A DNA stretch of 64,000 nt from Thermoanaerobaculia bacterium (GTDB lineage: Bacteria > Acidobacteriota > Thermoanaerobaculia > Multivoradales > Multivoraceae), in assembly GCA_963664405.1 (NCBI GenBank), contig OY761158.1:1824001-1888000 (forward strand), given 5' to 3'. Below the pieces are notes generated by a model, which was not told where the DNA came from, made no database searches, and saw only the letters and a list, made by a program, of their open reading frames with translations. The stretch's first letter is position 1. Each line of letters opens with the position of its first letter. Positions 2,357 through 42,832 of this stretch are shown here, piece by piece. The translations under genes and the position numbers were made by a program.

Positions 2357-2989
2357 CTATGGCAACCGGATCAATTCACCGCTGGCATCGATGGAGACCT
2401 CGACTTCTTTGGCGACGCGCAACAGCAGCCTGCTCGGGTCCTCGAGACCCCACTCGACATAAGGCACCAAGAAAGTGGTTCGCGCGTGTAACCGACCCGC
2501 CCTGGAGTCGAGGGTCACCGGCAGGGTGAGTGAGTGCTCCTCCCCGTGGATCCGCAGTCGCGCCAGCACCCGGATGACGCCGCCACTCCCCGGCTCGAAG
2601 CTCCCGACCAATCCATCGACAATGAGCACGAGCTCCGGGAAATCATCGCTCTCCAGCACCCGCTGATGCATCTGCTTGTCTCGCCTGGCGTTCCCGGTCT
2701 CGAAAGAACGCGCGTCGACCACCACCTGACCTTCTGCCTCGCCGCGCTCGGTATCGATGCGAAGGCTCCCTCGAAGCGCCTGCGCCGTGCCGTGGACCTT
2801 GTGGAGAGTGGAATCGACCACGAACCTGATCTCGGTGGCGGCGACGTCGAGATCGAAGCTGTAGGTCTGCGCCGCGAGTGAGCTCGGCACCACGAGCGCA
2901 AGAAAAGCAAGGACCCAGCTTCTAGACCAGCGTTTCCAAAGTTCGCGCACATATCTCGGCCCCTTCGGACACGCTGGTCTAGTCTTCAT
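2357..2989 (-). CDS. YceI-family periplasmic lipid/polyisoprenoid-binding protein; signal peptide carries an in-frame MITE remnant
   Basis: IRFVVDSTLHKVHG, SFETGNARRDKQM and LRIHGEEH motifs. Removing the 57-bp insert restores MKTRSWVLAFLALVVPSSLAAQ. Confidence 0.85.
   Translation of the reverse strand: MKTRPACPKGPRYVRELWKRWSRSWVLAFLALVVPSSLAAQTYSFDLDVAATEIRFVVDSTLHKVHGTAQALRGSLRIDTERGEAEGQVVVDARSFETGNARRDKQMHQRVLESDDFPELVLIVDGLVGSFEPGSGGVIRVLARLRIHGEEHSLTLPVTLDSRAGRLHARTTFLVPYVEWGLEDPSRLLLRVAKEVEVSIDASGELIRLP
2922..2982 (-). mobile_element. internally deleted MITE copy (family A), CTAG-flanked, net +57 bp (19 codons) inside yceI
   Basis: CTAGACCAGCGTTTCCAAAGTTCGCGCACATATCTCGGCCCCTTC...ACGCTGGTCTAG; same ends as the copies at 33714, 37951 and 40616. 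Confidence 0.9.
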
Positions 2990-5792: not shown

Positions 5793-5955
5793 CGAAACAC
5801 CTCCATCACGAGATGTTGCGACGACCAGTTGAATCCGCCGTGGACACCTCCCTTTGCATACGGGCCTGGCCCTACGATCGGTCGGCATGTTCAGAGATCG
5901 GCCCTTCATTGGAGCGACCGCTATGCTAGCCTCTCGTGTTCGCAAGGGCTCAATT

Positions 5956-25377: not shown

Positions 25378-26451
25378 ATGAAATGGTCCTGGAGTCTCGG
25401 CAAGATCGCCGGGATCGAGCTCAAGGTCCATGCGACCTTCTTCCTGTTGGTCGCCTGGGTGGGCTGGACTCACTGGGCGGACGGCGAATCGCTGGCGGCG
25501 GCGATCGCGGGCATTACTTTTATTCTCAGTCTCTTCGCCTGCGTGGTCCTGCACGAGCTCGGCCACGCCTTGACGGCGCGCCGCTACGGAATCCGCACCC
25601 GCGACATCGTGCTGCTACCGATTGGGGGCGTAGCCCGACTCGAGCGCATTCCTGAGGACCCGCGCCAAGAGCTCTGGGTCGCGGTGGCGGGACCCGCCGT
25701 CAACGTGGTCATCGCCACAGTTCTCTTCACCATCATCTCCTTGACCGGATCCTGGCAGCCGGTGGGCGGGCTCACCGTCAGCGGCGGTTCGTTTCTCGAG
25801 AGAATCGCCATCGCCAATGTCATTCTGGTCATCTTCAATCTGATCCCCGCCTTTCCGATGGACGGTGGACGCATGCTTCGCGCTGTTCTGGCGATGCGCC
25901 TCGAGTACGTAAAGGCAACCCAGATCGCGGCGACCGTCGGTCAGGGCCTCGCCTTCGTCTTCGCTCTGATCGGTCTCTGGGCGGCGCCGTTCCTACTCTT
26001 CATTGCCTTCTTTGTCTGGATCGGCGCCAGCCAGGAAGCCAGTATGGTCCAGATCAAGCACGCCCTCGGGGGCATCCCGGTCGGCCGGGTGATGATCACC
26101 GAGTTCGTCACTCTCCACCCGGAAGAACCGCTGACACGCGCAATAGCCCTGACTCTGGCGGGGTCCCAGAAAGACTTCCCTGTCGTTGTCGGAGACCGGG
26201 TAGTGGGCGTGCTCACGCAGTCGACATTGATGCGTGCGCTGGCGGAGAAGGGGGAGCACGCCCAGACTGCCTCGGTGATGGAGCAGAGTTTCGAGCTCGC
26301 CGACGTCTCGGAAATGATCGAGCCGGTCTTCATCCGCCTACGGGCACGTAGATGCTCAACCCTGCCGGTACTCGAAGCGGGCCGACTGGTCGGTCTCCTC
26401 ACGCTGGAGAACGTGGGCGAGTTCCTCAGCCTTCAATCTGCGATGCGCTAG
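25378..26451 (+). CDS. site-2 protease (M50) with CBS domains
   Basis: HELGH, AGPAVN, NLIPAFPMDGGR and two CBS-like C-terminal repeats. Confidence 0.92.
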   Translation: MKWSWSLGKIAGIELKVHATFFLLVAWVGWTHWADGESLAAAIAGITFILSLFACVVLHELGHALTARRYGIRTRDIVLLPIGGVARLERIPEDPRQELWVAVAGPAVNVVIATVLFTIISLTGSWQPVGGLTVSGGSFLERIAIANVILVIFNLIPAFPMDGGRMLRAVLAMRLEYVKATQIAATVGQGLAFVFALIGLWAAPFLLFIAFFVWIGASQEASMVQIKHALGGIPVGRVMITEFVTLHPEEPLTRAIALTLAGSQKDFPVVVGDRVVGVLTQSTLMRALAEKGEHAQTASVMEQSFELADVSEMIEPVFIRLRARRCSTLPVLEAGRLVGLLTLENVGEFLSLQSAMR

Positions 26452-26615
26452 TGGGCCGTAACACTCGAACGTTTAGTGGCTGAGTGAGTCATTCGTGGTC
26501 GAGATCAAGGCGCGCTGACGCAGGCATAGCGGGGACTATGTCGGGGAAGCGTAACGCAGAGATCGGCCGCGAGGGCCGCTCAGGCGCTAAACGTTTGGGT
26601 GTTACGGTCCACTAA
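26448..26615 (+). mobile_element. MITE family B: ~36-bp TIRs, TA duplication, same hairpin core as family A
   Basis: C-TA-GTGGGCCGTAACACTCGAACGTTTAG ... CTAAACGTTTGGGTGTTACGGTCCAC-TA-A; core GGCGCGCTGACGCAGGCATAG...CTATGTCGGGGAAGCGTAACGC. Begins at the stop codon of the M50 gene. Confidence 0.85.
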
Positions 26616-26645
26616 CCATTCTCAACCCACGGAGCCGTTCTAGTC

Positions 26646-27512: not shown

Positions 27513-27666
27513 CCTCCGGAAGCGCTGCCCTCGGGGGTTTTCATTCCGCCGGAGAGCTTGAACAGTCATCCCATCGGTGTAGCTGGGGGTACAATGGTTC
27601 CAGCTAACCAGGCGCTCCAGCCCAGTCTGCGGCTTCGGCGACCATAGTCAACAAGGGGTCCAAACC

Positions 27667-28587
27667 ATGATGAGCATCAAGAGAGTCGCAAGCTTCGTTC
27701 TCCTCGCAGCAATTTTCGCCTTGCTACCGGCGGCGGCGGTCGCCCAAGGCTCGATGCGCTACACCATCGGCGTCACCGAGTTTGAGAACCAGGCCGGCTG
27801 GTACAGCTCATGGCACCTCGGCAACGCGTGGGGCACGGTAATGACCAACGCACTGCAGGAGACTGGCCGCTTCATCGTTCTGGCTGAGACCGACATGCGG
27901 GGTGCGGCGCTCGACGAGCAGGATCTGGCAGCCTCGGGCCGCACTGCACAGGGGGCAAAGGCTCCGGTCACCGGGCAACTGACCCCCGCCCAGCTCCTGG
28001 TCAAGGGCGCGATCACCCACGTACAAAGCGACACCAGCGGCGGTGGCGGCGGGATCAGGATCAAAGGCATCCGCCTCGGCGGCAAAAAAGGCAAGGCCGA
28101 GCTCAATGCGACGATCTATCTGATGGATTCAACCACAGGGCAGATCGCGGCTTCGACCAGCGTTATCGGCAAGGCAGAAAGAAAGGGTGCATCCATCGGC
28201 TATAGCAGCAGCGACTTTGGCGGCGATTTCAACGCCTACAAGAAAGACAATGTGGGCATTGCAATGGAAGATGCCATTCGTCAAGCCGTCGCGTGGCTCA
28301 CCGACCAACTCGAGAACGTGCCGTGGACGGGAACCGTGGCTATCGTGCGCGAAGGGCAGGTCTACATCAATCGCGGCAGTCGTGAGGGCGTTGCCAACGG
28401 GCAGGAGTTCATCGTCGGCGAAGCCGACGTCGTCCGGGACCCCGACACCGGCGAGGTGCTCGAGACCTTTGTAAACGAGCTCGCGCGTCTCAAAGCCACC
28501 AACGTAAGAGAGAAACTCACGATCTGCGACGTGGTCTCGGGGAACGCAGCGGCGGTCAAAAAGGGAATGACCGTCCAACTGCCCTAG
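27667..28587 (+). CDS. exported CsgG/HfaB-family protein with FlgT-like C-terminal domain
   Basis: Signal peptide; IGVTEFEN, ALQETGRFIVL, AQLLVKGAIT; C-terminal VYINRGSREG...DPDTGEVL. Confidence 0.75.
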   Translation: MMSIKRVASFVLLAAIFALLPAAAVAQGSMRYTIGVTEFENQAGWYSSWHLGNAWGTVMTNALQETGRFIVLAETDMRGAALDEQDLAASGRTAQGAKAPVTGQLTPAQLLVKGAITHVQSDTSGGGGGIRIKGIRLGGKKGKAELNATIYLMDSTTGQIAASTSVIGKAERKGASIGYSSSDFGGDFNAYKKDNVGIAMEDAIRQAVAWLTDQLENVPWTGTVAIVREGQVYINRGSREGVANGQEFIVGEADVVRDPDTGEVLETFVNELARLKATNVREKLTICDVVSGNAAAVKKGMTVQLP

Positions 28588-28609
28588 CCGAGGGGGACAC
28601 ACACCGAGC

Positions 28610-28648
28610 CCTGACGTTCTCCTGACGCTGTCCTGACGCCTGGCAGAC
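28610..28648. promoter_or_regulatory. 11-bp-period direct repeats (probable OmpR/PhoB-type operator)
   Basis: CCTGACG at 28610, 28621 and 28632, degenerate GCAGAC at 28643; lies upstream of the GGDEF/EAL gene. Confidence 0.55.
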
Positions 28649-28740
28649 AAACTACGCCTTACAGTCCTAATCGGCATGTGAGGTGGCCCGCTCGGGGAGC
28701 TGCCACCGCGAGACGGTTGAAGTTGAACGAAACGAAGGGT

Positions 28741-31700
28741 GTGGAATCGCCTAGGGAAGTAGAAGCTCGGCCAGACGGCCGCGCCGCCGAGCTGATCTAC
28801 GCCGATGACCTGACCGGTCTCTACAATCGGCGCTTCCTTCAACGGATCTTCAACGAGTACTGGGACCGTCTCACCAGCGGTGGGCAGTCGGTCTCTCTGG
28901 CGATCGTCGACTTGGACTATTTCAAGACGATCAACGACAGCTTCGGGCATCCGACCGGAGACGCCGTCCTCGTCGAGACAGGGGAATTCCTGCGCGGTTA
29001 CTGTCGTGAGAACGACTGGGTCGTCCGCTATGGTGGCGACGAGTTCCTGCTGATCTTTCCAGGGACCTCCAAGGCGGAGGCGAAAAACCTCACCGAGCGG
29101 CTCACAGACGCCTTCGGAGAAAAGGTCCTCTATTCAGCCGAGACACGGCAGGCTCTCGAGCCCCAACTGACTTTCAGCATCGGCGTGGCGACTTTTCCGG
29201 AAGACGGGGACGACGGAGAGACACTCCTGAGTCAAGCGGACAGGGCTCTTTATGCATCGAAGAGGCGAGGTGGGAACCTAGTCCGGGTCGCCGGTGAGAC
29301 CGACGATTGGCACGACAGAGCTGAGCCCTTTCTCATTTCTCCCTGCGAGGCAACGATCGGGCGGGAGAGATTGTTGGATGACATCGCCGAGTTTTACGAA
29401 AGACCGGCGACCGCGGAGCCTTCGTGGCTGTCACTGTCGGGGCCTCCGGGTATCGGAAAAAGTCGAATACTCGAGGAAGCGGCCAAGATGGGCCCGAAAT
29501 CTGAAGTCGAGCCTGTGTCGATGATCTGCCGATCAGAGACAGCCGAACAGCCCTTCGCCTCCATCGGTCATTTGTTCTCGAAAATCGGTCGCCAGAATGC
29601 TTCCCTTCTCTCGCAGTTGTGGCAAAACACCGATACCGAGCTGTACTCGACTCTTCGAGCCCTCGTAGACGGCGGCCCGCTGCCGGCTCCGGCAGACACC
29701 GAGAATAGGCCGGATCTACCCCCCCATGAAGAGATCCGCCGGGCCTTCCTCAAGGGTTTGGAGTGTCTGGTATCCGAGGGCCGATTCGTCCTGCTTCTGG
29801 ACGACTTTGGTCACTGCGACCCTTCGAGCGCGGAGGTCTTGCGCTCGGCTGTGGGCGAGGAGGGCCTCCGGTTGCGGATCCTCACTGCCCACAGCGGAGA
29901 CGAATCCTCGTACCACGACGTTGGAGCCTCCTTCCTAGCTTCCCTCGGGGAGGCGGCCTGGCTCGAGCGAAGAGAGATACCTACTCTCTCCAAAGAAGGA
30001 GTGCGAGGCCTGATCTCGGGTCTCCTCGGCGATCATCGCTCCTTTCCGGGCTTCGGCAGGCTCATCTTCGAGGCCACCGACGGCAATCCCCTCTTCGTCG
30101 AGGAAGTGCTACGCCTCGCGGTCGCCCGCGGCAGAATCCTGGACACGCAGAACGGACGGCTGGTCCAGATGATGGAGGCGAAAGAGCTTCCCAAAACCCT
30201 CGACGAAGCCATGGGTCTTCGGATGCTGACGCTCGACAAGAGTACGCGGGAGATCGTGTCGCAAGCGTCCGTCATCGGCGACGCCTTCGATCTGTCTACT
30301 CTTGTGGCGCTGCTGGGCCGTAATGAGGGTGAGACGCTGCACCTGCTGGACAAGGCGCAAGCTCAGGGTCTCCTTGCTGGAGTCGCCGACAACGACTTTT
30401 CCAACCTTCGCTTCACGACGAGCTCGTTGAGAGAGACCGCATATAGGAGTACCACTCCGGAGGAGCGAAAGCGGGTCCACCGCCAGATCGGAGAGTTGGA
30501 GGAGTCCCGATCCGGCCCCCACACCCTCAGCAAGGCAAGACAGCTCGCCCATCACTTCTCCCTGAGTGGTGAAGTCGAGAAAGCCCGCCGCTACCGAGAG
30601 CTGGCGAGGACCCTCCGTCAGAGACCTAGCCCGGATGCGCCGGTCTTGGAAGGCAGAGAGAGGCGCCCCCCTGAGGCCGGTCCCGAGGTCAACCCGCTCG
30701 ACCATGGAGGGGCGAGTGCCGGTGACTCCGCAGCCGAGGCTTCGGGAGCCGCGATCTTGGCGCCCCAGCCTGTACCGCAAACCGAACTTACCTCCGAGGA
30801 CCTTCGGATGCTTCTGCAGGCCCACTTCGGTCATGAGCTGAGGGGTACCCTTGCCGAGGCCACCGACCCCATCGCCAAAGGAGAGGAGCATACCTACCGG
30901 CAGGATCTGCTGCGGACGGGCGAGAAGATGTTCCGCGATTTCCTGATGGAGGGTGACCTGGCTTCCGCCAGAAGAGTCGTGCACTTCGTGAAGAGCTCCC
31001 GCGAGCTCGACGGAAGCGGGAAAGAGAGTGGCGGCAGAGCGCAGGACGTTCTGTCACTCCTGGCGTCGACGAACACCTTCGAAATTCTCCTATCGGATCT
31101 CCAGGCCGGGCCTGGGAGCGTCAGCCAGGAGGCCCTAGCCCTGTTGCGGGAGTTCGGGACAAGCGCGGAATCGACGCTCGGCGTGTTCGTCACTGAAACG
31201 GACGATCTCAGAGCTCGGCTGCTGGCGGCCCAGGTACTGAAGGAGATCGCAGCCGACGCGTGCAGAGGGGTCTTGGACCTCATCGCCAGTGGAGATGACC
31301 CCGTCGTCTCCCGGCGTGTCGTGAGCCTCCTGCCGGTGCTCTCGGACGACCTCGTGTCCGAGCTATCTCTTGCCGCGCGGGTGCGAAACGTGGGCGTTTT
31401 TGGCGAAGTCATCAAGATCCTCCATGGACAGCCCAGGGAGGTGCGCTGTGAAGTGCTCCTCTCCCTACTCCGATCTTCGAGCGCAGAGTTGGTGCGGCGA
31501 GGGATGCGCTACATCGGCGAATGGGATCTCAAGGAGATGAAGCTCCAGGTTCTCGATGTGCTCACCGCTTCCGACAGCCCGAAGATCCTCCATTCCGGAT
31601 GCACCGTGGTCGTTCGTTGGCACCTCACGGATGCGATCCCGAGATTGGCGAGCGTCCTGGACAAGAGGAAACCCTTTAGTTTCGGCCGAGCCTACCCAGC

Positions 31701-33681
31701 GGGGGTACGACGAGGGGCCGCTCGTACCCTGACCGCGCTCGGCACCATGGAGGCCTTCGACGTGCTGTCGAACTTCGTTAAAGACAACGACGAAGAAGTT
31801 CGGCGCATCTGCCTTGGTCTCAGTTCGGAACAGTCTCAAGCGGAAAACCTCGACATCGACGACCAGGTACCAGTGGAGTCGTGGTCTCGACGTTCCCGCG
31901 CCGAAGACCTGACGATCGAAGAGCGAGGGGCCGAGGCGGTCAGACTACTCATCGTCGATAGCCACCGTGGAGAAGCCAAGCGTCTCAAGCGTGCACTCGA
32001 GATGAGCACAACGGCTGAAATCGAAGTGTCCCAGGCGGACGGTCTCGAAGATACAGGAGCGGACTATGACGTCATGGTCGTAGGGTCGAGGCGGCGCACA
32101 CAGCTTCAGCCGGAATACCTCGAGCAGCTGTGGAGTAGGAGCCATACCCCCATTGTCGTGATGGCGAAAGACAGCGTTGAAGGGAGGGAACTGCAGGCAC
32201 GGTGCGAGGGCGTACAAGCCTTTATCGAGACCAAGAAGTGGAGTCCGCCTCTCCTCGTGCTCACCATCCTCAACGCACTCTCCGAGCACCGTCTTCTCAA
32301 ACAGCTCGACGCAGCCCAAAAAGAAGCCATCTTCCTGGCGACCCACGATGCTCTCACCGGTCTTCACAATAGGAATGCCTTCCGAAAGGAGCTACGGAAG
32401 GGCATAAACCGCGCGACGCGCAATCGCGAGCACCTGGCGGTCGTTGTTGTCAACCTCGACGACTTCCGAGGAGCGAACAAAGTGCTCGACCGGACCAGCC
32501 AGGACAAGTTACTCAAGATGGTGGCGGAACGCCTCTCGAAGGCTACTCGCAAGAGCGACAGCGTTGCCTGCGTAGGAGCTGAGCAATTCGCTGTCATGCT
32601 CGAGGAGCTGAGCAAAGACGACGGCGGTCCCAGGGTTGTCCAGAAGCTTCGCGAAACCATGGCCCAGCCCTTCGACGCCGGGGAGAGGCAGATCAAACTG
32701 GCCACGCGAATCGGGATGGCCGTCTTCCCGGGTGATGGCAGAGACGCTGACAGTCTAATGACGCACGCAGAGGAAGCGGCGTGCCTCAGTCAGTACAACA
32801 AGGTTCGTTACTTCTCCGGGGCGCCGGACCCCGCGGCCGAGCTTAGTCTTCGCTTCGAGGAAAGGTTTCGGGAGGCTGTGGAGAACAAGGCATTCTCCAT
32901 CCACTATCAGCCGATCCGAGGCACCATCGGCAACAATCTGGCCGGAGCGGAGGCCCTCATAAGGTGGACAGATCCGAACGGCGACTTCATTCCACCCGAG
33001 AAGTTCATCCCCCTTGCAGAACAGAGTGGACTGATCGTCCCGCTCGGAGCTTGGGTCCTGGAAACTGCTTGTAAGCAGTGGCAGGAGTGGCGCAAGGCCG
33101 GTCTCGTTTCGGTTCCGCTATCGGTGAATATTTCCGGTGAGCAGATCAGGAGTCCCGAGCAGGTGGGAAGACTCGCCACTCTGATCAGAGGCCTGGAACT
33201 GCCAACCTCCATGCTTCGACTCGAGATCACCGAACGCACCATCCTGGAAGACGATGAGGCCACAATTGCCGCGCTTACGATTCTCAAGTCCATGGGCATA
33301 GGCCTCAACCTCGACGACTTCGGCACCGGGTATTCATCTCTTCAGCTACTGCGAAGACTTCCCGTCGACAGGATCAAGATCGACCGGAGTTACGTCCAGG
33401 ATGCGGGGTCCGGGTCCGACACAGCGACCCTGACGGCGGCGATCATCTCGATGGCCCACCGTCTCAAGTTGAAGGTGGTCGCCGAAGGAGTGGAGACCCG
33501 ACGACAGTGGGACTTCCTGCGCGAGAATGACTGCGATGAGTTCCAGGGGCACCTCTTCAGCAAAGCCTTGTCTCCGGAGAAGCTGCTTCGGCTGCTGGAA
33601 GCAGAGAGGCGCGTGGCCGACCGGGACGACGACTCGAAGGCAAGAGGAATCGTGAGAGTTGGCCGTTTGAGCGAGGCCTGA
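28741..33681 (+). CDS. multidomain c-di-GMP enzyme: GGDEF - AAA(STAND-like) - HEAT-like - pseudo-REC - degenerate GGDEF - EAL
   Basis: DDLTGLYNRR...RENDWVVRYGGDEF; Walker A GPPGIGKS; LLLDDF; GNPLFVEE; HDALTGL..VGAEQF; AEALIRW, LDDFGTGYSSL, VVAEGVE. Start uncertain (28678 or 28741). Confidence 0.88.
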   Translation: MESPREVEARPDGRAAELIYADDLTGLYNRRFLQRIFNEYWDRLTSGGQSVSLAIVDLDYFKTINDSFGHPTGDAVLVETGEFLRGYCRENDWVVRYGGDEFLLIFPGTSKAEAKNLTERLTDAFGEKVLYSAETRQALEPQLTFSIGVATFPEDGDDGETLLSQADRALYASKRRGGNLVRVAGETDDWHDRAEPFLISPCEATIGRERLLDDIAEFYERPATAEPSWLSLSGPPGIGKSRILEEAAKMGPKSEVEPVSMICRSETAEQPFASIGHLFSKIGRQNASLLSQLWQNTDTELYSTLRALVDGGPLPAPADTENRPDLPPHEEIRRAFLKGLECLVSEGRFVLLLDDFGHCDPSSAEVLRSAVGEEGLRLRILTAHSGDESSYHDVGASFLASLGEAAWLERREIPTLSKEGVRGLISGLLGDHRSFPGFGRLIFEATDGNPLFVEEVLRLAVARGRILDTQNGRLVQMMEAKELPKTLDEAMGLRMLTLDKSTREIVSQASVIGDAFDLSTLVALLGRNEGETLHLLDKAQAQGLLAGVADNDFSNLRFTTSSLRETAYRSTTPEERKRVHRQIGELEESRSGPHTLSKARQLAHHFSLSGEVEKARRYRELARTLRQRPSPDAPVLEGRERRPPEAGPEVNPLDHGGASAGDSAAEASGAAILAPQPVPQTELTSEDLRMLLQAHFGHELRGTLAEATDPIAKGEEHTYRQDLLRTGEKMFRDFLMEGDLASARRVVHFVKSSRELDGSGKESGGRAQDVLSLLASTNTFEILLSDLQAGPGSVSQEALALLREFGTSAESTLGVFVTETDDLRARLLAAQVLKEIAADACRGVLDLIASGDDPVVSRRVVSLLPVLSDDLVSELSLAARVRNVGVFGEVIKILHGQPREVRCEVLLSLLRSSSAELVRRGMRYIGEWDLKEMKLQVLDVLTASDSPKILHSGCTVVVRWHLTDAIPRLASVLDKRKPFSFGRAYPAGVRRGAARTLTALGTMEAFDVLSNFVKDNDEEVRRICLGLSSEQSQAENLDIDDQVPVESWSRRSRAEDLTIEERGAEAVRLLIVDSHRGEAKRLKRALEMSTTAEIEVSQADGLEDTGADYDVMVVGSRRRTQLQPEYLEQLWSRSHTPIVVMAKDSVEGRELQARCEGVQAFIETKKWSPPLLVLTILNALSEHRLLKQLDAAQKEAIFLATHDALTGLHNRNAFRKELRKGINRATRNREHLAVVVVNLDDFRGANKVLDRTSQDKLLKMVAERLSKATRKSDSVACVGAEQFAVMLEELSKDDGGPRVVQKLRETMAQPFDAGERQIKLATRIGMAVFPGDGRDADSLMTHAEEAACLSQYNKVRYFSGAPDPAAELSLRFEERFREAVENKAFSIHYQPIRGTIGNNLAGAEALIRWTDPNGDFIPPEKFIPLAEQSGLIVPLGAWVLETACKQWQEWRKAGLVSVPLSVNISGEQIRSPEQVGRLATLIRGLELPTSMLRLEITERTILEDDEATIAALTILKSMGIGLNLDDFGTGYSSLQLLRRLPVDRIKIDRSYVQDAGSGSDTATLTAAIISMAHRLKLKVVAEGVETRRQWDFLRENDCDEFQGHLFSKALSPEKLLRLLEAERRVADRDDDSKARGIVRVGRLSEA

Positions 33682-33706
33682 AAACCGGCCGCGCTCTGGA
33701 GCGCGG
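33682..33706 (-). terminator. probable intrinsic terminator of the ABC importer operon
   Basis: Hairpin CCGCGCTC-TG-GAGCGCGG (33689-33706) followed on the minus strand by CCGGTTTT; sits between convergent genes. Confidence 0.5.
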
Positions 33707-33713
33707 ACGAAGT

Positions 33714-33878
33714 CTAGACCAGCGTTTCCAAGGTTCGTGCACATAGCTCGAGGTCATTCTGTTCGCTGGCCAGGCGCGGCGACGCAGGCATATTGGGCAA
33801 TATGTCGAGGAGGCGCAACGCCGCCAGCGGGCAGAAGGGGCCGAGATGTGTACGCGAACTTTGGAGACGCTGGTCTAG
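33714..33878 (+). mobile_element. MITE family A, intergenic copy at a stop codon (net +161 bp)
   Basis: CTAGACCAGCGTTTCCAAGGTTCG...CGAACTTTGGAGACGCTGGTCTAG; the right CTAG contains the TAG stop of the ABC ATPase gene. Confidence 0.92.
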
Positions 33879-34855
33879 AGATCGAAATGGCAGGCCACGG
33901 TGTGGGCTTGCTCGCCGGGGGCCGCGACTTCGCGTAGCGTCGGCACCTCGGTACGACAGCGGTCCTCGGCATGGGGGCAGCGGGGGTGGAAGTGGCAGCC
34001 GGTCGGCGGATCGATCGGCGACGGGACGTCACCCTCGAGGACCTGGAAGCCGGAGCGCTTGGTAGGGTCCGGAGCCGGGATCGCCGCAATCAGGGCCTGG
34101 GTGTAAGGGTGTTTGGGGCGTTCGTAGACGTCGTCCGCGCCCGCCGTCTCGACGATCTTACCGAGATACATGATGGCGATGCGATCGGAGACGTGCTTTA
34201 CCACTGCCAGATCGTGAGAGATGAAAAGGTAGGAGAGCCCGAGATCCTTCTGCAACTCGAGCATCAAGTTGAGGATTTGACTCTGAATCGAAACGTCGAG
34301 GGCGGAAACCGGCTCGTCACAGACAACTAGCTTGGGATCGAGCGCGATCGCGCGGGCAATGCCAATGCGCTGGCGCTGCCCGCCCGAGAACTCGAAGGGG
34401 AAGCGATCCAACGAGGTCTCCGGCAGTCCGACCTTCGCAAGGAGTGCGTGGACAAGCTCTTTTCGGTCCTTTTCGGTACCGACCTTGTGGACGACGTAGG
34501 GCTCCTCGAGGATCTTGGCCACGCTATGCCGAGAGTTGAGCGAGTCGGCGGGGTCCTGAAAAATCATCTGCAGCTCACGCCGGACGCCTTTCAGCTCGCG
34601 ACGGCCCAGTTTCACCAAGTCGGTTCCATCGAAGACGACACTCCCGGCCTGGGGACGGAGCAGACGGACGATCGAGCGGCCCAAGGTGGACTTGCCGCAT
34701 CCGGACTCCCCGACCAAGCCGAGGGTCTCCCCCGCACCCACTTCCAAAGCAACATCATCGACGGCCTTACAGACCGCGGTCGCGGTCATGAACACACCAC
34801 CGCGCACCGGGAAGTAGGTCTTGAGGCCGTTGACCTCGAGCAGTGGGGAGCTCAT
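33875..34855 (-). CDS. oligopeptide ABC transporter ATP-binding protein (OppF-like)
   Basis: GESGCGKST, FSGGQRQR, CDEPVSALD and oligo_HPY tail (HPYT, GCHFHPRC). Confidence 0.93.
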   Translation of the reverse strand: MSSPLLEVNGLKTYFPVRGGVFMTATAVCKAVDDVALEVGAGETLGLVGESGCGKSTLGRSIVRLLRPQAGSVVFDGTDLVKLGRRELKGVRRELQMIFQDPADSLNSRHSVAKILEEPYVVHKVGTEKDRKELVHALLAKVGLPETSLDRFPFEFSGGQRQRIGIARAIALDPKLVVCDEPVSALDVSIQSQILNLMLELQKDLGLSYLFISHDLAVVKHVSDRIAIMYLGKIVETAGADDVYERPKHPYTQALIAAIPAPDPTKRSGFQVLEGDVPSPIDPPTGCHFHPRCPHAEDRCRTEVPTLREVAAPGEQAHTVACHFDL

Positions 34856-35907
34856 GCGTCGCCGTCTCTCCGCGTGCCGGCGATCTCCCGCCAGCGAAAG
34901 CAGCTGACCTGGTGATCTCCCTCCACCACCTGGAGCTCGGGCAGCTCCGCGGCGCAGCGCTCTTCGCGGTGCGGACAGCGATTCTCGAAACGACAGCCCG
35001 AGGGCAGGTCCAGCAGGCCCGGCACCATACCCTCGATCGTGTGAAGAGGCTGTTTGCGCGGATTTTCCAATCGGGGAATGGCCTCGAGTAGGCCGCGCGT
35101 GTAGGGATGACGCGGCTCGGCAAAGATCTCTTCTACCGACCCGGTCTCGGCGATGCGCCCCGCATACATGACCACCACGTCATCGCAGGTCTGAGCGATC
35201 ACTCCCAGATCGTGAGTAATGAGGAGGATCGACAGCCCCATCTCTTCTTGCAAGTCGCTCATCAGCTTCAAGACCTGAGCCTGGATGGTCACATCCAACG
35301 CGGTGGTCGGCTCGTCGGCGATGATGAGAGCTGGGCTATTGGCCAGCGCGATGGCGATCACTACGCGCTGGCGCATGCCGCCGGACAGCTGATGAGGGTA
35401 CTCGGCGTAACGGATCTCCGGCGACGGGATGCCGACCTGCCCCAGTAGCTCGATCGACCTGCGCATTGCATCCTGCGCTGTCAGGTCCTGATGCAACAGC
35501 AGCGCCTCGGAAAGCTGTCGACCTACCGGGTGCACCGGATTGAGCGCCGTCATCGGCTCCTGGAAGATCATGCCGATGCGAGCGCCGCGGATCTTTCCCA
35601 TCTCCTCCAGAGACAGATCGAGCAGATTCTCGCCGTCGAGGAGCACTTCGCCACCCAGAATCTGCCCCATGGGCTGGGGCAGAAGACGTGTGATCGAAAG
35701 TGCGGTGACCGTCTTGCCACAGCCCGACTCCCCCACCAAGCCAACCGTCTTGCCGCGAGCGACTTTGAAACTGACGCCGTCGACAGCGTTCACCCGCCCC
35801 ACATCGGTGTCGAAGGCGGTGACCAGGTTGCGCACCTCGAGAAGATCGTCCGAGGTGGCGCTCCGATCTGCGGTTGCGTCACTCACTCCCGGGCCGGTAC
35901 TTGTCAT
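34852..35907 (-). CDS. oligopeptide ABC transporter ATP-binding protein (OppD-like)
   Basis: [29 protein letters not shown] and GCRFENRC. Confidence 0.93.
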
Positions 35908-38143
35908 AGGTGAAGACGCCGGGCGGGAATGTCTTCCCTGACCGCTTCGCCGCCCGGGTCTCTTCCTTCAAATCCTCGTCGATCCAGTGCACCCAGTGAT
36001 CCTCGTAGTGGCCGGCCAGCTTCACACTGAAATCGTCGGGCCAACCCACCCAGCGCCACGACCCCATGCGCAGAAAGGGCTGCACGAAGCCGGGAATGAA
36101 GATCGCCGCTTCGTCGACGATCTCCTCCATCTGACGCGACAGCTCGAGCATCTCCCCTGCATCGTCCGAGCCACGATAACGCTCGATCAGCGGATCGAGC
36201 TCACGGCTGGCGAAGGAGTGAAGGTTGTTGGTCTGGGTCTTGACCTTGCGTTCCGGGTTCACAGACCCGTCGGCAAGAAACGCTTTATCGTAGGCGTTCA
36301 CCGAATGGTAGGTCTCCCAGTAACGCGGGTACATCTCCGGACTGACCGCGAAAGCGGTGAAGACGAGATCGTGCTTCTTCTCTTGCGCCTTCTTGAACGC
36401 AGCGGTGGCGTCGAGGACCTCGAGCCGGTACTCCAGACCCGCCTGCGCTGCTTCTTCTCTCAGGATGGTGAGGATGTCCTTGAAGCTCTGGTAACCGGTG
36501 GTCAAGGTAAAAGAGAGGCGCTGCCCTTGGGCGTTGACCAGGATGCCGTCAGACCCACGCTCGTGGAACCCGGCCTTGGCAAAGCTCTCGAGGGCTTTCT
36601 CGACCGAGTAGGAGCGAGCCTCGAGCGTAGGATGAGTGAACTCTCCGTACCCATCCGAGGAGGTCCGCATGCGGGTGTAGGCACCGCGGAAGTACTTTTC
36701 GATCACCAAGTCCCAGTTGGTGGCGAAGTGGAGACCCTGGCGAATGTCGCGGTCCTCCAGCAGCGGCTGCGCCGTGTTGATCCAGAGTCCCCAAGTCGGC
36801 CGCGGGACGTCGTTATAGAACTCGTGCTTGTGAACATAGCCGTCCCGAACCAGAGGATGGTCGTCGGCGAGCTTGTCGTACCAATACTCGGGCTCTCGCA
36901 TCCGCGAACTATCCAGCTCCCCACGCTTGAACACCTCGAAGGCCTTCGCTTTGTCGCGAATGATCACGAAGTGAATGCGCTCGGGGTTGAACCTGTAGCG
37001 CCAGAACTTGTTCTCCCTCGCCCACCAGTTGTCGACGTGGGTGAAGGTGAGCGATCGTCCTTTGTGAATGTTCTCTGGACGGATCTCATAGGCACCCGTT
37101 GTCGGCATGAAACGCCACTGATAACGGTCGACGAAATCGTCGCCTAGACTCTTGAAGAAGTGCCGCGGAAGAGGCCGTAGCTCGAGGACGCGAGCGTTCA
37201 TGTCGGGCTTGGCCTCGGGCACCGAGACCGAGAAAGTGAGCTCGTCGTAGCGGGCTACCTCGGTGAAGTTGCGGTTGAAGAAATTGTTCGAATACGGCGC
37301 ACGGATGTATTTCGACTGGTAGAAGAAGAACGCGAAGAGAGCATCATCGGTGGTGACCGGATGCCCGTCCGACCAGCGAGCAGCGGGGTTGAGTCGGACA
37401 TACACCGTTCTCGTCTCGCGATCGATCGCCCACTCCTTCGCCAAGGCGGGGTAGTAGCGGTGCCCGTTGGGCCCGATATTGGTTACATTGGGATGGCGTT
37501 GGCCATAGGTGTAGAGCGTTTCGTCCTGTAGATAGCTGCGGAACGAGCCGTTGGCATCGGGGCCAACGGTACGTAGGGTGCGCGGAAAATCCGCCAGCGC
37601 CATAAATAGGGTGCCGCCCCTCTTGGCCTCCGAAGACCCGATATCGGGCAGGTCCATTCCGTCGTCCCATTCGAGGTCGGCGGGAATGTCCTCCGGTGTC
37701 CCGAAGCGAAAGAGCTTGGGAAACTCTCCTGCCGCCTGCCGCGAGTCGAGCTCCTCCTGGGTGATCTCTCCGCGCTCGAAGGCCTCGCGTACTCGAGGAG
37801 GCATCGAGACCTTGGTGCGGTAGAACTCCTCGATCTCCGCGGTGTTGTCTCTCCCTAGGTCGGGAAAGTCCATGTCTGCGCCCGCGTCGCCTGCTCCACA
37901 ACCGATCAGGAATGACCCCAGCGACACCGCCGAGATGAAGGTCCAGAGCGCTAGACCAGCGTTTCCAAAGTTCGCGCACATATCTCGGGCCCTTCTGCCC
38001 GCTGGCGTCGTTTCGCCTCCTCGACATATTGCCCAATATGCCTGCGTCAGCGCGCCTAGCCAGCGAACAGAATGCCCTCGAGCTATGCAGCACGAACTTC
38101 GGAAACGCTGGTCTAGATCTCGATTTGGCATTTGTGCCCTCAT
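35879..38143 (-). CDS. family-5 extracellular solute-binding lipoprotein (YejA-like) with a 54-aa in-frame MITE insert in its signal peptide
   Basis: AKRGGTL, ARWSDGHPVT.DD, TGAY, NTAQPLLEDRDIRQ. Removing the insert gives MRAQMPNRDLALWTFISAVSLGSFLIGC (lipobox). Confidence 0.85.
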   Translation of the reverse strand: MRAQMPNRDLDQRFRSSCCIARGHSVRWLGALTQAYWAICRGGETTPAGRRARDMCANFGNAGLALWTFISAVSLGSFLIGCGAGDAGADMDFPDLGRDNTAEIEEFYRTKVSMPPRVREAFERGEITQEELDSRQAAGEFPKLFRFGTPEDIPADLEWDDGMDLPDIGSSEAKRGGTLFMALADFPRTLRTVGPDANGSFRSYLQDETLYTYGQRHPNVTNIGPNGHRYYPALAKEWAIDRETRTVYVRLNPAARWSDGHPVTTDDALFAFFFYQSKYIRAPYSNNFFNRNFTEVARYDELTFSVSVPEAKPDMNARVLELRPLPRHFFKSLGDDFVDRYQWRFMPTTGAYEIRPENIHKGRSLTFTHVDNWWARENKFWRYRFNPERIHFVIIRDKAKAFEVFKRGELDSSRMREPEYWYDKLADDHPLVRDGYVHKHEFYNDVPRPTWGLWINTAQPLLEDRDIRQGLHFATNWDLVIEKYFRGAYTRMRTSSDGYGEFTHPTLEARSYSVEKALESFAKAGFHERGSDGILVNAQGQRLSFTLTTGYQSFKDILTILREEAAQAGLEYRLEVLDATAAFKKAQEKKHDLVFTAFAVSPEMYPRYWETYHSVNAYDKAFLADGSVNPERKVKTQTNNLHSFASRELDPLIERYRGSDDAGEMLELSRQMEEIVDEAAIFIPGFVQPFLRMGSWRWVGWPDDFSVKLAGHYEDHWVHWIDEDLKEETRAAKRSGKTFPPGVFTYDKYRPGSE
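37951..38116 (-). mobile_element. MITE family A, full copy, net +162 bp (54 codons), in frame in a coding sequence
   Basis: CTAG at both ends, ~21-bp TIR GACCAGCGTTTCC(A/G)AAGTTCG, central CATATTG-GG-CAATATG hairpin. Confidence 0.93.
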
Positions 38144-38153
38144 AGGTCGCCAG

Positions 38154-39245
38154 TCACATATAGACCGTGAACTTCTTCGGGTCGAAGGCCTCACGCACGG
38201 CCTCGCCGACGAAGTTCACCAGGGTCAAGATGAAGACCAGGGTGACGAAAGCGGAAGAGATGATCCAAGGGGAAGTGGTCAGGCTCGCCGTTCCCTGCTT
38301 GAGCAGCTCGCCGATCGAGGGAGTCGGCGGCGGAAGCCCCCAGCCGAGGAAGTCGAGGGCGGTCACGGCGACGATCGCGTTGATGACGGTCAGCGGCACG
38401 AAGGTCACGATCGTCGAAAGCACATTGGGAATGATGTGGCTGAAGATGATCCGCGAAGTTGAAGCACCGAGAACGATGGCAGCCGCCGTGTAATCCCTCT
38501 CCTTCTCGCGATAGGTGGCGGTGCGCATGTAGTAGGTCATCGATGTCCACGAGAAGAGCACCATGATGGCGAGCAGAATCGTGATTCGGGTCGGGATATC
38601 GAAGCTGGTCGGAATCACCGAGAAGACGATGATCACCATGTAGAGGAAAGGGATATTCGACCAGATCTCGATCAGACGCTGCACAAGAAGATCGAAGACG
38701 CCTCCGAAATAGCCCATCATGCACCCTAGAGAAATCCCGATCAGATAGGTCAGCGACATGAAGGCCAGCGCAAAAAGAATAGCGGTGCGAAAGCCGAAGG
38801 CGAGGCGCGCAAAGATGTCGCGGCCGGTCGAGTCGGTGCCCAGATAGTGCCTCGAGGCCAGCGAAGGCGGCGCAGGCTTGAACACTCCTTCGTAGGCATC
38901 GTTCTCATAGGCGTCGTAGGGAACGAGAGGCATGAGCACCAGGTTCTCGCCGCCTTCGCGCTCGAATCTCCGTTTGAGATCGCGATAGTCGACCGGAGTC
39001 AGCGCATCTACACCCACCGATCCGAACTCGTCACCCAGCCGCACCCGAGTGTAGGTGGGGAACGACCACTCACCCTCGTAGCGCACCGCCAGTGCACGAC
39101 TATTGATGAACACCTCACCCACCAAAGAGAGAGCGATAAAGACCACCAGGATCAGAAACGAAAAATAGCCACGTCGTATTTCTCTGAAGCGCTTCAACTT
39201 CTTTGCAGTAAGAGGGTTGAGCTTCATCGCCCAGGTCCGGCTCAA
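38154..39245 (-). CDS. peptide ABC transporter permease (YejE/OppC-like)
   Basis: HYLGTDSTGRDIFARL, EAA-like loop DYTAAAIVLGAS and LDFLGWGLPPPTPS. Confidence 0.9.
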   Translation of the reverse strand: MSRTWAMKLNPLTAKKLKRFREIRRGYFSFLILVVFIALSLVGEVFINSRALAVRYEGEWSFPTYTRVRLGDEFGSVGVDALTPVDYRDLKRRFEREGGENLVLMPLVPYDAYENDAYEGVFKPAPPSLASRHYLGTDSTGRDIFARLAFGFRTAILFALAFMSLTYLIGISLGCMMGYFGGVFDLLVQRLIEIWSNIPFLYMVIIVFSVIPTSFDIPTRITILLAIMVLFSWTSMTYYMRTATYREKERDYTAAAIVLGASTSRIIFSHIIPNVLSTIVTFVPLTVINAIVAVTALDFLGWGLPPPTPSIGELLKQGTASLTTSPWIISSAFVTLVFILTLVNFVGEAVREAFDPKKFTVYM

Positions 39246-40267: not shown

Positions 40268-40300
40268 GGACCACGGGAGGCTAGCACAGCAGGCCCCGAA

Positions 40301-40606: not shown

Positions 40607-40615
40607 TCTCCAATA

Positions 40616-40781
40616 CTAGACCAGCGTTTCCAAAGTTCGTGTGCAATAGCTCGAGGTCATTCTGTTCGCTGGCCAGGCGCGCCGACGCAGGCATATTGGG
40701 CAATATGTCGAGGAGGCGAAACGCCGCCAGCGGACAGAAGGGGCCGAGATATGTGCGCGAACTTTGGAAACGCTGGTCTAG
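40616..40781 (+). mobile_element. MITE family A, full copy (net +162 bp) in a divergent intergenic region
   Basis: CTAGACCAGCGTTTCCAAAGTTCG...CGAACTTTGGAAACGCTGGTCTAG. Confidence 0.93.
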
Positions 40782-40846
40782 GCCAAGTCGCCTGCGAGCC
40801 TGGTAGCCTGCGTGCACCAACCCAGACACCCAACAGGGGGCAAGCC

Positions 40847-42832
40847 ATGACCCAACTAGACCAGCGTTTCCAAAGTTCGTGCTGCATAGCTCGAGGTCAT
40901 TCTGTTCGCTGGCTAGGCGCGCTGACGCAGGCATATCGGGCAGCCGCCATCGACTCGTATTCGCGGCCAATTCTCACCTCTGTAGGCCCCCTGCTCGCCC
41001 TGGTGCTCGGTGTGACGGCGCTGGCGTGCAGCTCCGGCGAGCCCACCGCTCCACCGGCGGAGACCAGCTCGAGCTCGGAGAGGCCGGCTCCGAATCCACT
41101 GCGCAGCGCCTACTTCGGCGACCTTCACGTGCACACTCGCTATTCGATGGACGCCTACATCTTCGATGTCAGGGCCTCGCCCGACGACGCCTATCGATTC
41201 GCCAAGGGCGAGCCTCTCGATCATGTCAGCGGCCATCGCATGCAGCTCCAGACTCCCTTCGATTTTCAGGCGGTCACCGACCACGGCATCCTGCTCGGCG
41301 CTCTGCCGGCAATGGATGACCCGGAGGACCCGCTCTACAACGAGCCTATCGCCAAGGAGCTGCGTGAGCTGGGGCCGGCGGAAGGGTTTCAGCGCGGCCG
41401 GGAAGCCTTTGAAGGCGGAGAGTTCGAGCAGATGGATTACTCCCATGCCACGCGCTCGGCCTGGCAGCGGATCATCGAGGCGGCCGAGCGTCATAACGAT
41501 CCCGGCCACTTCACCACCTTCGTCGCCTATGAGTACACCTCGACCGCCCCTGATCAGGGCAACCTCCACCGCAACGTGATCTTTCGCGGCAGCGAGGCAC
41601 CCGAAATGCCGCTCAGCTCCGCGGACTACCCCGACCCGGAGGATCTGTGGCGCTGGCTCGACGACCTACGAGCCCAGGGCATCGAAGCGTTGGCGATTCC
41701 ACACAACTCGAACGGCAGCAACGGCCAGATGTTCCGCCTCGAGACCCTGTCCGGCGAGCCTCTCGACGCCGACTATGCCGATCTGCGCATGCGCAACGAG
41801 CCTTTAGTCGAGGTCACCCAGGTCAAGGGTACGTCCGAGGTACACCCGCTGCTGTCCCCAAACGACGAGTGGGCTGACTTCGAGATCTTCCCCTACCGCA
41901 TCTCCACCCGGCTGGACAGCCAGCCGGCCGGCAGCTACGTCCGCGATGCCTACGTCAGCGGGTTGATCCTGGAGGAGACCAAGGGTTTCAATCCCTTCCG
42001 CTTCGGTCTCATCGGGTCGACCGACACCCACAACGCGGCAGGGACCCCGGACGAGTGGCACTTCCACAGCAAAGTCGGCGCCCGCGACGGTACCCCTCAG
42101 CGCCGCGGATCGGTGCCCCTGGACGAGCCCGGAGAGGACGGCGAGCCGGCCTACGTCGATGGCTATTTCCACCTCTGGGGCGCCGCCGGTGTCGCCGGCG
42201 TCTGGGCGGAGGAGAACACCCGCGAGTCGATCTACGATGCTTTCCGGCGCAAGGAGACCTTCGCCACGACCGGGCCTCGCATCCAAGTCCGATTCTTCGC
42301 CGGTTACGACCTCGCGGAGGATCTCGCCTCGGCTCCCGACAAGGTAGCCAGGGCCTACGAAGGTGGAATACCGATGGGGGCCGATCTGAGCGCCGATGGC
42401 GAGCGAGCGCCGCGTTTTCTGCTGTGGGCGATTCAGGACCCCAACAGCGCTCCGCTCCAACGTCTGCAGATCGTCAAGGGCTGGGTAGACGACGAGGGGG
42501 GCCACGATCAGGTTTTCGACGTCGCCTGCTCCGACGGCGCGCAGCCCGACCCGGAAACCCATCGCTGCGCCGACAACGGCGCTAGCGTGGATCTTTCTGA
42601 TTGCAGCTTCTCGCGTGATTCCGGCGCGGCGGAGCTGAGCGCGGTATGGAGTGACCCCGGCTTCGAGCCCGCCCAGCACGCCGTCTACTACCTGCGAGTG
42701 ATCGAGAACCCCACTTGCCGTTGGTCGACATGGGACGCCTTGAGGGCGGGTGTGGAGCCGCGCGCCGACTTACCTACGACCATCCAAGAGCGAGCCTGGT
42801 CGTCGCCGATCTGGTTCGTTCCCGGAGGCTGA
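40847..42832 (+). CDS. DUF3604-family PHP-like lipoprotein with a half-MITE in frame at its N-terminus
   Basis: AYFGDLHVHTRYSMDA, VTDH, YEYT, NLHRNV, IPHNSN, EVTQVKGTSE and QERAWSSPIW; lipobox ALAC; SD AGGGGG before ATG 40847. Confidence 0.85.
   Translation: MTQLDQRFQSSCCIARGHSVRWLGALTQAYRAAAIDSYSRPILTSVGPLLALVLGVTALACSSGEPTAPPAETSSSSERPAPNPLRSAYFGDLHVHTRYSMDAYIFDVRASPDDAYRFAKGEPLDHVSGHRMQLQTPFDFQAVTDHGILLGALPAMDDPEDPLYNEPIAKELRELGPAEGFQRGREAFEGGEFEQMDYSHATRSAWQRIIEAAERHNDPGHFTTFVAYEYTSTAPDQGNLHRNVIFRGSEAPEMPLSSADYPDPEDLWRWLDDLRAQGIEALAIPHNSNGSNGQMFRLETLSGEPLDADYADLRMRNEPLVEVTQVKGTSEVHPLLSPNDEWADFEIFPYRISTRLDSQPAGSYVRDAYVSGLILEETKGFNPFRFGLIGSTDTHNAAGTPDEWHFHSKVGARDGTPQRRGSVPLDEPGEDGEPAYVDGYFHLWGAAGVAGVWAEENTRESIYDAFRRKETFATTGPRIQVRFFAGYDLAEDLASAPDKVARAYEGGIPMGADLSADGERAPRFLLWAIQDPNSAPLQRLQIVKGWVDDEGGHDQVFDVACSDGAQPDPETHRCADNGASVDLSDCSFSRDSGAAELSAVWSDPGFEPAQHAVYYLRVIENPTCRWSTWDALRAGVEPRADLPTTIQERAWSSPIWFVPGG
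40856..40942 (+). mobile_element. MITE family A, left half only, starting at codon 4 of the DUF3604 gene
   Basis: CTAGACCAGCGTTTCCAAAGTTCGTGCTGCATAGCTCGAGG...GACGCAGGCATATCGGGCA, then diverges at the central loop. Confidence 0.88.

Follow-up and report, generated by a model that had tools for sequence, protein, structure and literature searches.

The question raised by the locus considered here is which molecule is seen by selection in a long palindromic repeat: the double-stranded DNA of its inverted ends or one of the two strands in a folded form. The window that we analyzed is a 64,000-nt stretch (G+C content of 62%) of the genome of a Thermoanaerobaculia bacterium, of the phylum Acidobacteriota (GenBank assembly GCA_963664405.1, contig OY761158.1, positions 1,824,001 to 1,888,000 of the forward strand). 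It encompasses six copies of a palindromic repeat, the ends of which read CTAG...CTAG; four of these are complete, one is a half copy and one, of 61 nt, contains an internal deletion. The focal copy, a full one of 165 nt (33714..33878, plus strand), is delineated by its sequence, its fold and the alignment of its two arms. An earlier note on this DNA had pointed out that the mismatches between the arms are compatible with G.U pairing on one strand only, and proposed that selection acts on a folded RNA or single-stranded DNA (ssDNA) whose polarity matches the sense orientation of three coding copies and of the copy at 26448. Hereinafter, we denote as sense the strand that reads GGCATA..TATGTC at the tip of the hairpin.

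Because the length of the element is fixed, the arms pair preferentially on one strand and an asymmetric 54-nt apex is conserved, the single-stranded GGCATA..TATGTC rod appears to be the selected form, and it is highly probable that selection sees a single-stranded form of the sense strand. With about even confidence, we read the element as a whole as a non-autonomous, mobile element that resembles MITEs (transposable elements of the miniature inverted-repeat type), belongs to Thermoanaerobaculia-type Acidobacteriota and is selected as a single-stranded rod, with RNA as the likelier molecule.

A rod of fixed length with free arms and a conserved apex

Relatives of the element were sought with an apex-pattern scan of the GTDB species-representative genomes, and the counts given below are among the matches listed. 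At least 20 loci contain the apex pattern, all of them in metagenome-assembled genomes (MAGs) of Thermoanaerobaculia or Acidobacteriota; 11 come from a single MAG, and many are located at contig ends, as are, in particular, many family C copies in one MAG. Among the 20 loci listed, 12 contain full copies and 8 are cut by a contig end; L002 and L007 apparently represent one locus, and L009 and L019 are orthologous. A covariance model (R1) built from 14 copies recovered all 14 as well as one diverged copy (L002:492-660, 89.9 bits). In the window, this model detected, as full copies, only the four, and the half copy and the 61-nt copy were not reported at E <= 1. Altogether, at least 17 full copies, including the four in the window, fall into nine families (A to I) with different arm sequences. 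In 14 of the 17, the length is 164 to 168 nt, the others being the family I copy (169 nt), L020 (179 nt) and L012 (206 nt). The two longest copies (L020:1430-1608 and L012:1430-1635) contain approximately 13 and 39 extra nucleotides, respectively, in both cases located at the 3-nt bulge of the apex (3' side); this additional sequence might represent a variable hairpin or what is left of a larger parental element. A coding element was considered and rejected given that most families, specifically B, C, D, E and H, contain stop codons in all six frames.

The consensus fold of 14 copies predicted by RNAalifold is a single unbranched rod of 58 pairs, with double compensatory changes in 42 of these. 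Of the 800 cells in paired columns, 94.4% are paired, compared to 71.0% in column shuffles, and none of the 500 shuffles reached the observed value; when the 3' partners were slid by 1 to 3 columns as a control, only 31 to 44% of the cells were paired and 15 to 19 pairs showed double changes, as opposed to 42. The arms are only 44 to 48% identical between family representatives and, outside the apex, vary freely in sequence except for the ~12 terminal bases, which share a weak motif, TAG-N5-CYGT. By contrast with the arms, the apical 54 columns (33770..33823 of the focal copy, plus strand, mapped by eye from alignment A1) are approximately 88 to 89% identical between family representatives. 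The conservation of the apex is not a mere consequence of ascertainment because the 30 apex columns outside the scan pattern still show 89% identity among 8 family representatives.

The apex contains two short G+C stems that covary (CGCC/GGCG, CGCT/AGCG and CGGC/GCCG), the 3-nt bulge on the 3' side and purine-rich internal loops, with GACGCA opposite CGAGGA. The apical stem (GGCATAT/ATATGTC in the focal copy) includes a G.U pair in every copy examined; in the single family I copy (L002:492-660), this stem is compensated (GGCAATG/CATTGTC) and the loop differs but the G.U pair and the internal loops are retained. A second, less conserved internal loop is located in the middle of the stem. No match to the Rfam 15 families was detected at the gathering score across the window, nor at E <= 10 for the regions 26400-26660 and 40580-40820, and for this reason, a known ribozyme, riboswitch, 6S RNA, signal recognition particle RNA or Acido-type motif is excluded. 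Inspection by eye did not support a kink-turn, given that the 3-nt bulge lies away from the tandem G.A positions, and we make no such claim. The GGGGWSAS motif of the TIR-flanked Y1 transposase (TIRYT) families (TIR, terminal inverted repeat), as given in the available part of PMC3733652, was similarly compared by eye with the apex loop GGGGACTA and did not match; it is absent from family A.

Polarity of the mismatches

Covariation does not, by itself, distinguish a double-stranded inverted repeat from a fold of RNA or ssDNA, which makes the types of mismatches the key test. In a symmetric alignment of the arms, the focal copy shows three wobbles, at arm positions 13 (T.G), 19 (G.T) and 25 (T.G), followed, immediately past the segment counted in the earlier note, by C.A at 27; the copy at 37951 has G.T at 17 and T.G at 25; and the copy at 40616 has T.G at 25 followed by two wobbles at 27-28. 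The copies cited in the earlier note are located where it had placed them, and their wobble mismatches are reproduced, as is the inner stem, TTCTGTTCGCTGGC/GCCAGCGGACAGAA, which pairs with one T.G. For the family B copy (26448..26615), the note had counted five G.T-type mismatches among six in the outer 36 bp; the polarity holds but the alignment yields four (G.T/T.G at positions 8, 18, 20 and 30) and one transversion mismatch (at 32).

The same polarity is observed when the copies are pooled, with G.T far in excess of A.C. The symmetric arm-versus-arm alignment of 16 copies, for which no structure model was used and scoring was symmetric, gave 84 G.T cells and 27 A.C cells, that is, about 3:1. 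In the consensus structure of 14 copies, there are 79 G.U cells and 14 A.C cells (43:8 when each change is counted once per family, p = 7e-7), and in the model-based alignment of 17 copies from 9 families, 87 and 12 (47:8 once per family, p = 8e-8); both of these alignments were fitted to the sense structure. Purine.purine mismatches outnumber pyrimidine.pyrimidine ones by 31 to 4 cells (24:2 once per family, p = 1e-5), and the unpaired columns contain, on the sense strand, 617 purines and 305 pyrimidines. A strong polarity characterizes families A, B, C, D, H and I, and the mismatch polarity always goes with the same side of the asymmetric, conserved apex. Recent changes follow the same trend: private transitions that break a Watson-Crick pair resulted in G.U 10 times (3 in family C and 6 in family A, plus 1 in family A with an assumed partner) compared to 2 or 3 that yielded A.C in families A and C, one of which, in a family C row and with an assumed partner, looks like half of a compensatory change; L017 carries one full compensatory change, from C-G to T-A.

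Folding of both strands, which the earlier note had suggested as a check, agrees with the mismatch counts. The RNAfold energies of the sense and antisense strands are -107.8 and -83.5 kcal/mol for the focal copy, -109.1 and -82.7 for 37951, -111.1 and -88.6 for 40616, and -112.2 and -69.6 for the family B copy, with 8 and 2, 7 and 1, 6 and 1, and 11 and 3 G.U pairs in the respective folds. For the focal copy, the z-score is -13.2 in the sense and -8.75 in the antisense orientation (200 dinucleotide shuffles each, none of which folds as well). Across the copies, the single-sequence minimum free energy computed for RNA is better for the sense strand in 15 of 16, by 8 to 43 kcal/mol, and the RNAalifold consensus is -89.8 kcal/mol for the sense strand compared to -62.1 kcal/mol for the reverse complement, which loses pairs. 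With DNA energy parameters, the advantage of the sense strand, seen in 13 of 16 copies, reaches 16 kcal/mol.

A mutation bias of the host strand, which the earlier note had named as an explanation that would undo its proposal, was considered and rejected: in the flanks (up to 1.4 kb per side, read in the sense orientation), the mean GC skew is +0.002, with values from -0.046 to +0.038, and the elements lie in mixed orientations. The skew of the element itself averages +0.13 and is positive in 16 of 16 copies.

Several observations weigh against a selected, single-stranded sense RNA. The counts from structure-fitted alignments lean to the sense strand, and the unbiased, symmetric count, at about 3:1, is weaker. 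Three families, E, F and G, the arms of which are nearly perfect, show no clear excess of G.U (2:3, 6:2 and 3:1, respectively, after collapsing by family), with per-copy G.T:A.C ratios from 1:5 to 4:3 in the symmetric alignment; the polarity extends beyond the window but is absent or weak in these three families. The degenerate copy L012 folds slightly better in the antisense orientation and has the reversed polarity. The sample is small (at least 17 full copies) and was ascertained through the apex, on which the scan was anchored, such that copies with a decayed apex are under-sampled. The orientation of the copies relative to the surrounding genes is unbiased (see below), so about half of them would yield the poorly folding strand. 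A scan of the region 26000-42000 for sigma-70-like promoters yielded 0 promoter-like sites, and none of the 4 terminator-like sites in the same region is located at an element; accordingly, the ideas of an element that carries its own promoter or serves as an intrinsic terminator were dropped. Finally, because DNA parameters also favor the sense strand, the energies do not distinguish RNA from ssDNA.

RNA or single-stranded DNA

With regard to the nature of the selected molecule, the case for RNA stands close to an even call, somewhat ahead of ssDNA. RNA is favored by the content of G.U pairs (approximately 10%), the purine-rich loops and the invariant G.U pair, features typical of protein-binding RNAs, as well as by precedents among ERIC, bcr1 and repetitive extragenic palindromic (REP) elements. 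Compensatory changes at the RNA level in the MITE bcr1 and RNA effects of ERIC are described in the available text of PMC3184786, and G.T pairing in REPs has already been taken as a sign of RNA function in the accessible part of PMC3733652.

The strongest alternative, to which we assign a chance well short of even, is that the selected strand is an ssDNA transposition intermediate of fixed polarity, as in IS200/IS605, REPIN/RAYT or TIRYT-like systems, with the hairpin serving as the enzyme substrate. The existence of such systems undermines one premise of the earlier note, namely, that transposases read TIRs only as double-stranded DNA: HUH/Y1 transposases act on ssDNA hairpins (PMC3116915 and PMC3733652, in the parts available). 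In the accessible text of the former, REPINs are mobile doublets that form hairpins, show compensatory changes and are predicted to fold in ssDNA or mRNA; in that of the latter, a distinct group of Y1 transposases with flanking TIRs (TIRYT) is found in Acidobacteria, with repeated TIR families in some cases. REPs and REPINs mobilized by RAYTs and the TIRYT families thus resemble the present element as hairpin-forming mobile repeats with compensatory changes and a proposed single-stranded intermediate. A polarity that is independent of host transcription (12 sense and 9 antisense loci) fits a transposition intermediate, the energies with DNA parameters (13 of 16 copies) are compatible with it, and the half copy in the window ends in the apical loop, as would be expected of hairpin-tip breakage. 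However, a search with Pfam revealed no Y1/HUH transposase among the 50 open reading frames (ORFs) of the window or the 35 ORFs in the 1.5-kb flanks of the 20 loci, and the window copies are found on both strands (4 on the plus and 2 on the minus strand), with no obvious replication-strand bias. Furthermore, the known systems conserve the foot or the ends of the hairpin and vary the tip, which is the reverse of the pattern observed here. REPs are 20 to 40 nt long and carry an unpaired GTAG or CGTC tag, in contrast to 166 nt and paired CTAG/YTAR ends, and REPINs combine conserved ends with a variable spacer; here, the tip rather than the foot is conserved, so the element does not have the layout of a REPIN. 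With TA/CTAG inside the palindrome at both ends, the element is more like DDE elements that duplicate TA than like REPs with their unpaired GTAG tag.

Integron attC sites are imperfect palindromes that are recognized as a folded single strand, with a conserved structure and asymmetric unpaired bases that set the strand. Unlike attC sites, which are delimited by GTTRRRY/RYYYAAC core sites and have variable tips, the present element has CTAG.. termini and a conserved tip, and occurs among ordinary chromosomal neighbors, with no cassette array or nearby integrase.

Target site and the double-stranded alternative

The element is mobile, with a target preference. Of the 17 full copies, 12 have TA at both ends, in the context CTAG, CTAA or TTAG, and the ends of the element coincide with TAG or TAA stop codons of neighboring genes (26449-26451, 33875-33877 and 2979-2981 in the window; L002, L006, L009, L010, L014 and L015 elsewhere). 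This apparent homing to stop codons is probably due to the rarity of TA/CTAG elsewhere in this GC-rich DNA, in which most tetranucleotides that contain TA would be stop codons. The copy at 37951-38116 lies within a gene for a substrate-binding protein (SBP) of the SBP_bac_5 family, and a homologous protein (P0005, 696 aa, 97% identical) lacks exactly the 54 residues encoded by the element (net 162 nt); three further SBP homologs have equally short N-termini. Judging from these protein comparisons, this copy is a recent, precise insertion. The empty site represented by P0005, at the protein level, fits a single CTAG/TA, where TA is part of the palindrome, so that the duplication is inseparable from the TIR. 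Complementarity extends 3 to 6 nt past the CTAG ends in several copies (33708-33713/33879-33884, 38117-38121/37946-37950 and the flanks of L010 and L017), which hints at a palindromic target preference, or is due to chance.

The second alternative is an ordinary double-stranded MITE mobilized by a DDE transposase of the IS630/Tc1-mariner or IS5 type, in which the polarity would stem from founder mismatches or strand-specific damage; we consider it unlikely. IS630 has been reported to prefer TA within 5'-CTAG-3', and Tc1/mariner/IS630 elements duplicate TA (PMC2170065, available part), in line with the TA ends and the YTAR context. The weak motif in the terminal ~12 nt is of the kind seen in related TIRs, inverted repeats bound by a single transposase would covary anyway, and the lack of polarity in families E, F and G is as this alternative would have it. 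Nevertheless, a transposase that reads double-stranded TIRs explains the terminal ~12 nt but not the full-length pairing over 70 bp, the fixed length, the asymmetric apex or the polarity. Polarity of the same direction emerged in no fewer than 6 families whose arms are unrelated (47:8, as above), and the purine.purine excess (24:2) together with the transition pattern is not explained by any single mutational bias; the flanks, moreover, are unskewed. A cognate transposase was not seen in the window, where the only transposases are those of two IS30-like copies and an IS21-type element, and no autonomous partner with matching TIRs and a DDE transposase was identified there.

By its general features, the element is similar to MITEs: it is shorter than 300 bp, has no coding capacity, carries terminal inverted repeats and occurs in many dispersed copies. 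ERIC/IRU (MITEEc1 in ISfinder, related to IS630 according to the available part of PMC11602168), Correia/NEMIS, RUP, bcr1 and Nezha are likewise dispersed, non-coding elements of about 100 to 170 nt with TA at both ends, and ERIC and similar MITEs also occur mostly beside gene ends, with the entire element forming a single long hairpin. There is, however, no sequence similarity between ERIC and the Thermoanaerobaculia element, which is not a member of that family: a blastn search in distant mode with 40616-40781 against 5,426 complete E. coli genomes returned no match. The family B copy yielded one 34-nt match, at chance level, in a Rhizobium plasmid when compared by blastn to the PLSDB plasmids, and none in a phage collection. 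Compared to the ERIC-like MITEs, the present element has a conserved apex (~89%), free arms that include most of the TIR (44 to 48%), a length of 164 to 168 nt and a one-strand polarity quantified across 9 families. A literature search that did not extend to supplementary files found nothing on the apex string, Thermoanaerobaculia transposable elements or acidobacterial palindromic MITEs, nor did it reveal a description of this element among papers on RNA structure, wobble pairing or transcribed hairpins of bacterial MITEs. What is new here is the combination of free arms, fixed length and conserved apex architecture, as well as the strength and breadth of the polarity.

Orientation relative to host genes and in-frame insertions

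The earlier note had linked the polarity to host transcription, with the coding copies and the copy at 26448 in the sense orientation. Relative to the gene next to or around them, 5 of the 6 copies in the window are sense, the sixth being located between convergent genes. Over 25 distinct insertion loci, for which gene calls were checked with Pfam and several assignments rest on a single confirmed neighbor, 12 copies are sense, 9 are antisense, 3 are located between convergent genes and 1 could not be assigned. In the strict subset, limited to copies that lie within a confirmed gene or are flanked on both sides by confirmed, co-directional genes, there are 5 sense cases (26448, 37951, 40856, 2922 and L012) and 4 antisense cases: L006 (HhH-GPD/RlmN), L009/L019 (efp/lysyl-tRNA-synthetase-like), L016 (IMPDH/SpoIIE) and L002:492-660 (inside a DJ-1/PfpI lipoprotein gene). 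The all-sense picture of the window does not generalize, and the polarity is a property of the element, not of the host transcript; the folded single strand of defined polarity that the note had proposed is retained, given its recurrence across families, its link to the apex and the unskewed flanks, and the connection to host transcription is not.

Four of the 25 loci are in-frame, stop-free insertions in the n-regions of signal peptides that add 19 to 55 residues. In the SBP_bac_5 lipoprotein (37951-38116, sense), 54 residues separate MPNRD-L from ALWTF..LIGC; in a DUF3604 lipoprotein (40856-40942, sense), 29 residues lie between MTQ and AAIDS..LAC; in a YceI-like protein (2922-2982, sense), 19 residues lie between MKT and RSWVLAF..LAA; and in the DJ-1/PfpI lipoprotein (L002:492-660, antisense), 55 residues lie between MASTPSSP and SRRTSG..LLGC. 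Three of these four hosts are lipoprotein precursors, with the lipoboxes LIGC, LAC and LLGC, respectively. Because the frames stay open, translation through the element is possible, and excision of the coding copies at the RNA level, which the earlier note had envisaged, is unneeded; in one of the four cases, the element is antisense relative to the gene. Hence, selection of the hairpin copy by copy in host mRNAs, always sense and with the coding copies removed or neutralized in an intron-like manner, is very improbable: it fits the window but not the antisense cases outside it (L006, L009 = L019, L016 and L002:492-660), the open frames or the lack of a match to any ribozyme or intron family even at E <= 10.

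Insertion of palindromes into open protein-coding genes is known for intragenic REPs and Rickettsia palindromic elements, which stay in frame (PMC3733652, part available). In contrast to these palindromes, most copies of the present element are intergenic, the intragenic ones are confined to signal-peptide n-regions, and most families contain stops in all six frames.

A tentative model

Returning to the single-stranded sense rod, we infer that its polarity results from selection rather than mutation, that the molecule could well be RNA and that the apex has a binding partner. The element would insert at TA within YTAR/CTAG, mostly at stop codons and occasionally at CTAG near a gene start, with the transposase provided in trans. 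Wherever a copy is transcribed in the sense direction, the resulting RNA would fold into an imperfect duplex of approximately 70 bp capped by the apex, which would bind a protein. Selection would then act on lineages of the element, that is, on the copies that found families, rather than on each resident copy in a host mRNA. A bolder and less probable proposition is that these repeats represent a new class of mobile structured nucleic acid, in which a stem of ~70 bp, free in sequence, would keep a 54-nt asymmetric apex core, with its two purine-rich internal loops, invariant G.U pair and 3-nt bulge, at a constant distance from the termini.

Copies in the window and other mobile elements

The focal copy is located between the stop of a GGDEF-EAL gene (ending at 33681, plus strand) and that of a convergent ABC ATPase gene (33875-34855, minus strand), the TAG stop of which (33875-33877) falls inside the terminal CTAG of the element. 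Three further copies of family A, other than the deletion copy, are present. The first (37951..38116, 166 nt, sense on the minus strand) is the in-frame insertion in the SBP_bac_5 lipoprotein gene, within an Opp/Dpp-type operon. The second (40616..40781, 166 nt, plus strand) occupies the divergent intergenic region between a DUF2277 gene (minus strand) and the DUF3604 gene (plus strand). The third is the half copy (40856..40942, plus strand), which consists of 87 nt, or 29 codons, from the 5' arm to the apical loop, and follows the third codon of the DUF3604 lipoprotein gene in frame; it stops in the apical loop (GGCATATCGGGCA, followed by unrelated sequence) and looks like the result of hairpin-tip breakage or deletion. 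The internally deleted family A copy (2922..2982, 61 nt, sense on the minus strand), in frame after codon 3 of the YceI-like gene, joins the initial ~16 nt of the 5' arm with the terminal ~45 nt of the 3' arm, and the TAG stop codon of the gene located upstream (2979-3851, minus strand) overlaps with its far end. The family B full copy (26448..26615, 168 nt, plus strand), with the same apex as in family A but different arms, is located between an M50 peptidase/CBS gene, the TAG stop of which (26449-26451) is inside the end of the element, and folD. In the 3' arm of family A (40733-40781 and 37951-37999), AAGGGG is followed, 8 nt later, by an ATG that reads outward in the CTA-G frame; initiation at this ATG in the SBP gene would yield MCANFGNAGLALWTF.., and translation could possibly restart internally were the stem opened or cleaved.

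In L020, a perfect 31-nt palindrome with CTAG on both sides follows the element immediately (approximately 1605-1645) and may be a minimal element of another TA/CTAG-targeting family.

The other mobile elements of the window include two copies of an IS30-like element (3885-5945 and 44316-46223), with transposase ORFs containing HTH_38 and rve domains (4395-5945 and 44826-46223, minus strand) and internal 90-nt direct repeats; the two copies share a 300-nt stretch that is 100% identical (3895-4194 = 44326-44625), at a spacing of 40,431 nt. An IS21-type pair on the minus strand comprises an IstB-like ATPase (57298-58068) and a transposase with a Mu-transposase C domain (58062-59831), and is adjoined by a shorter plus-strand ORF (59822-60730) that also contains a Mu-transposase C domain, which suggests that the region 57298-60730 consists of nested or broken insertion sequence copies within a glycosyltransferase/sulfotransferase gene cluster.

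Implications

What selects for the hairpins of common palindromic MITEs and REPs is rarely clear, and here, three independent strand asymmetries, all linked to the same conserved, asymmetric tip and none accounted for by host transcription or local skew, recur across families with unrelated arms. Whichever molecule is selected, this element is a tractable test case for the recognition of non-autonomous elements. The insertion of the element at stop codons and in frame into lipoprotein signal peptides affects gene calling in the respective MAGs. Should the element indeed represent a new class, the apex would be a docking site for an enzyme or a host factor that mobilizes or processes the single-stranded sense form, and the life cycle of the transposon would require an RNA or ssDNA rod, unlike that of any described DDE-type MITE. 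If the selected strand is ssDNA, the element would be a new type of substrate for single-strand transposition; if it is RNA, a new and abundant structured RNA would move along with a transposon in these little-studied Acidobacteriota.

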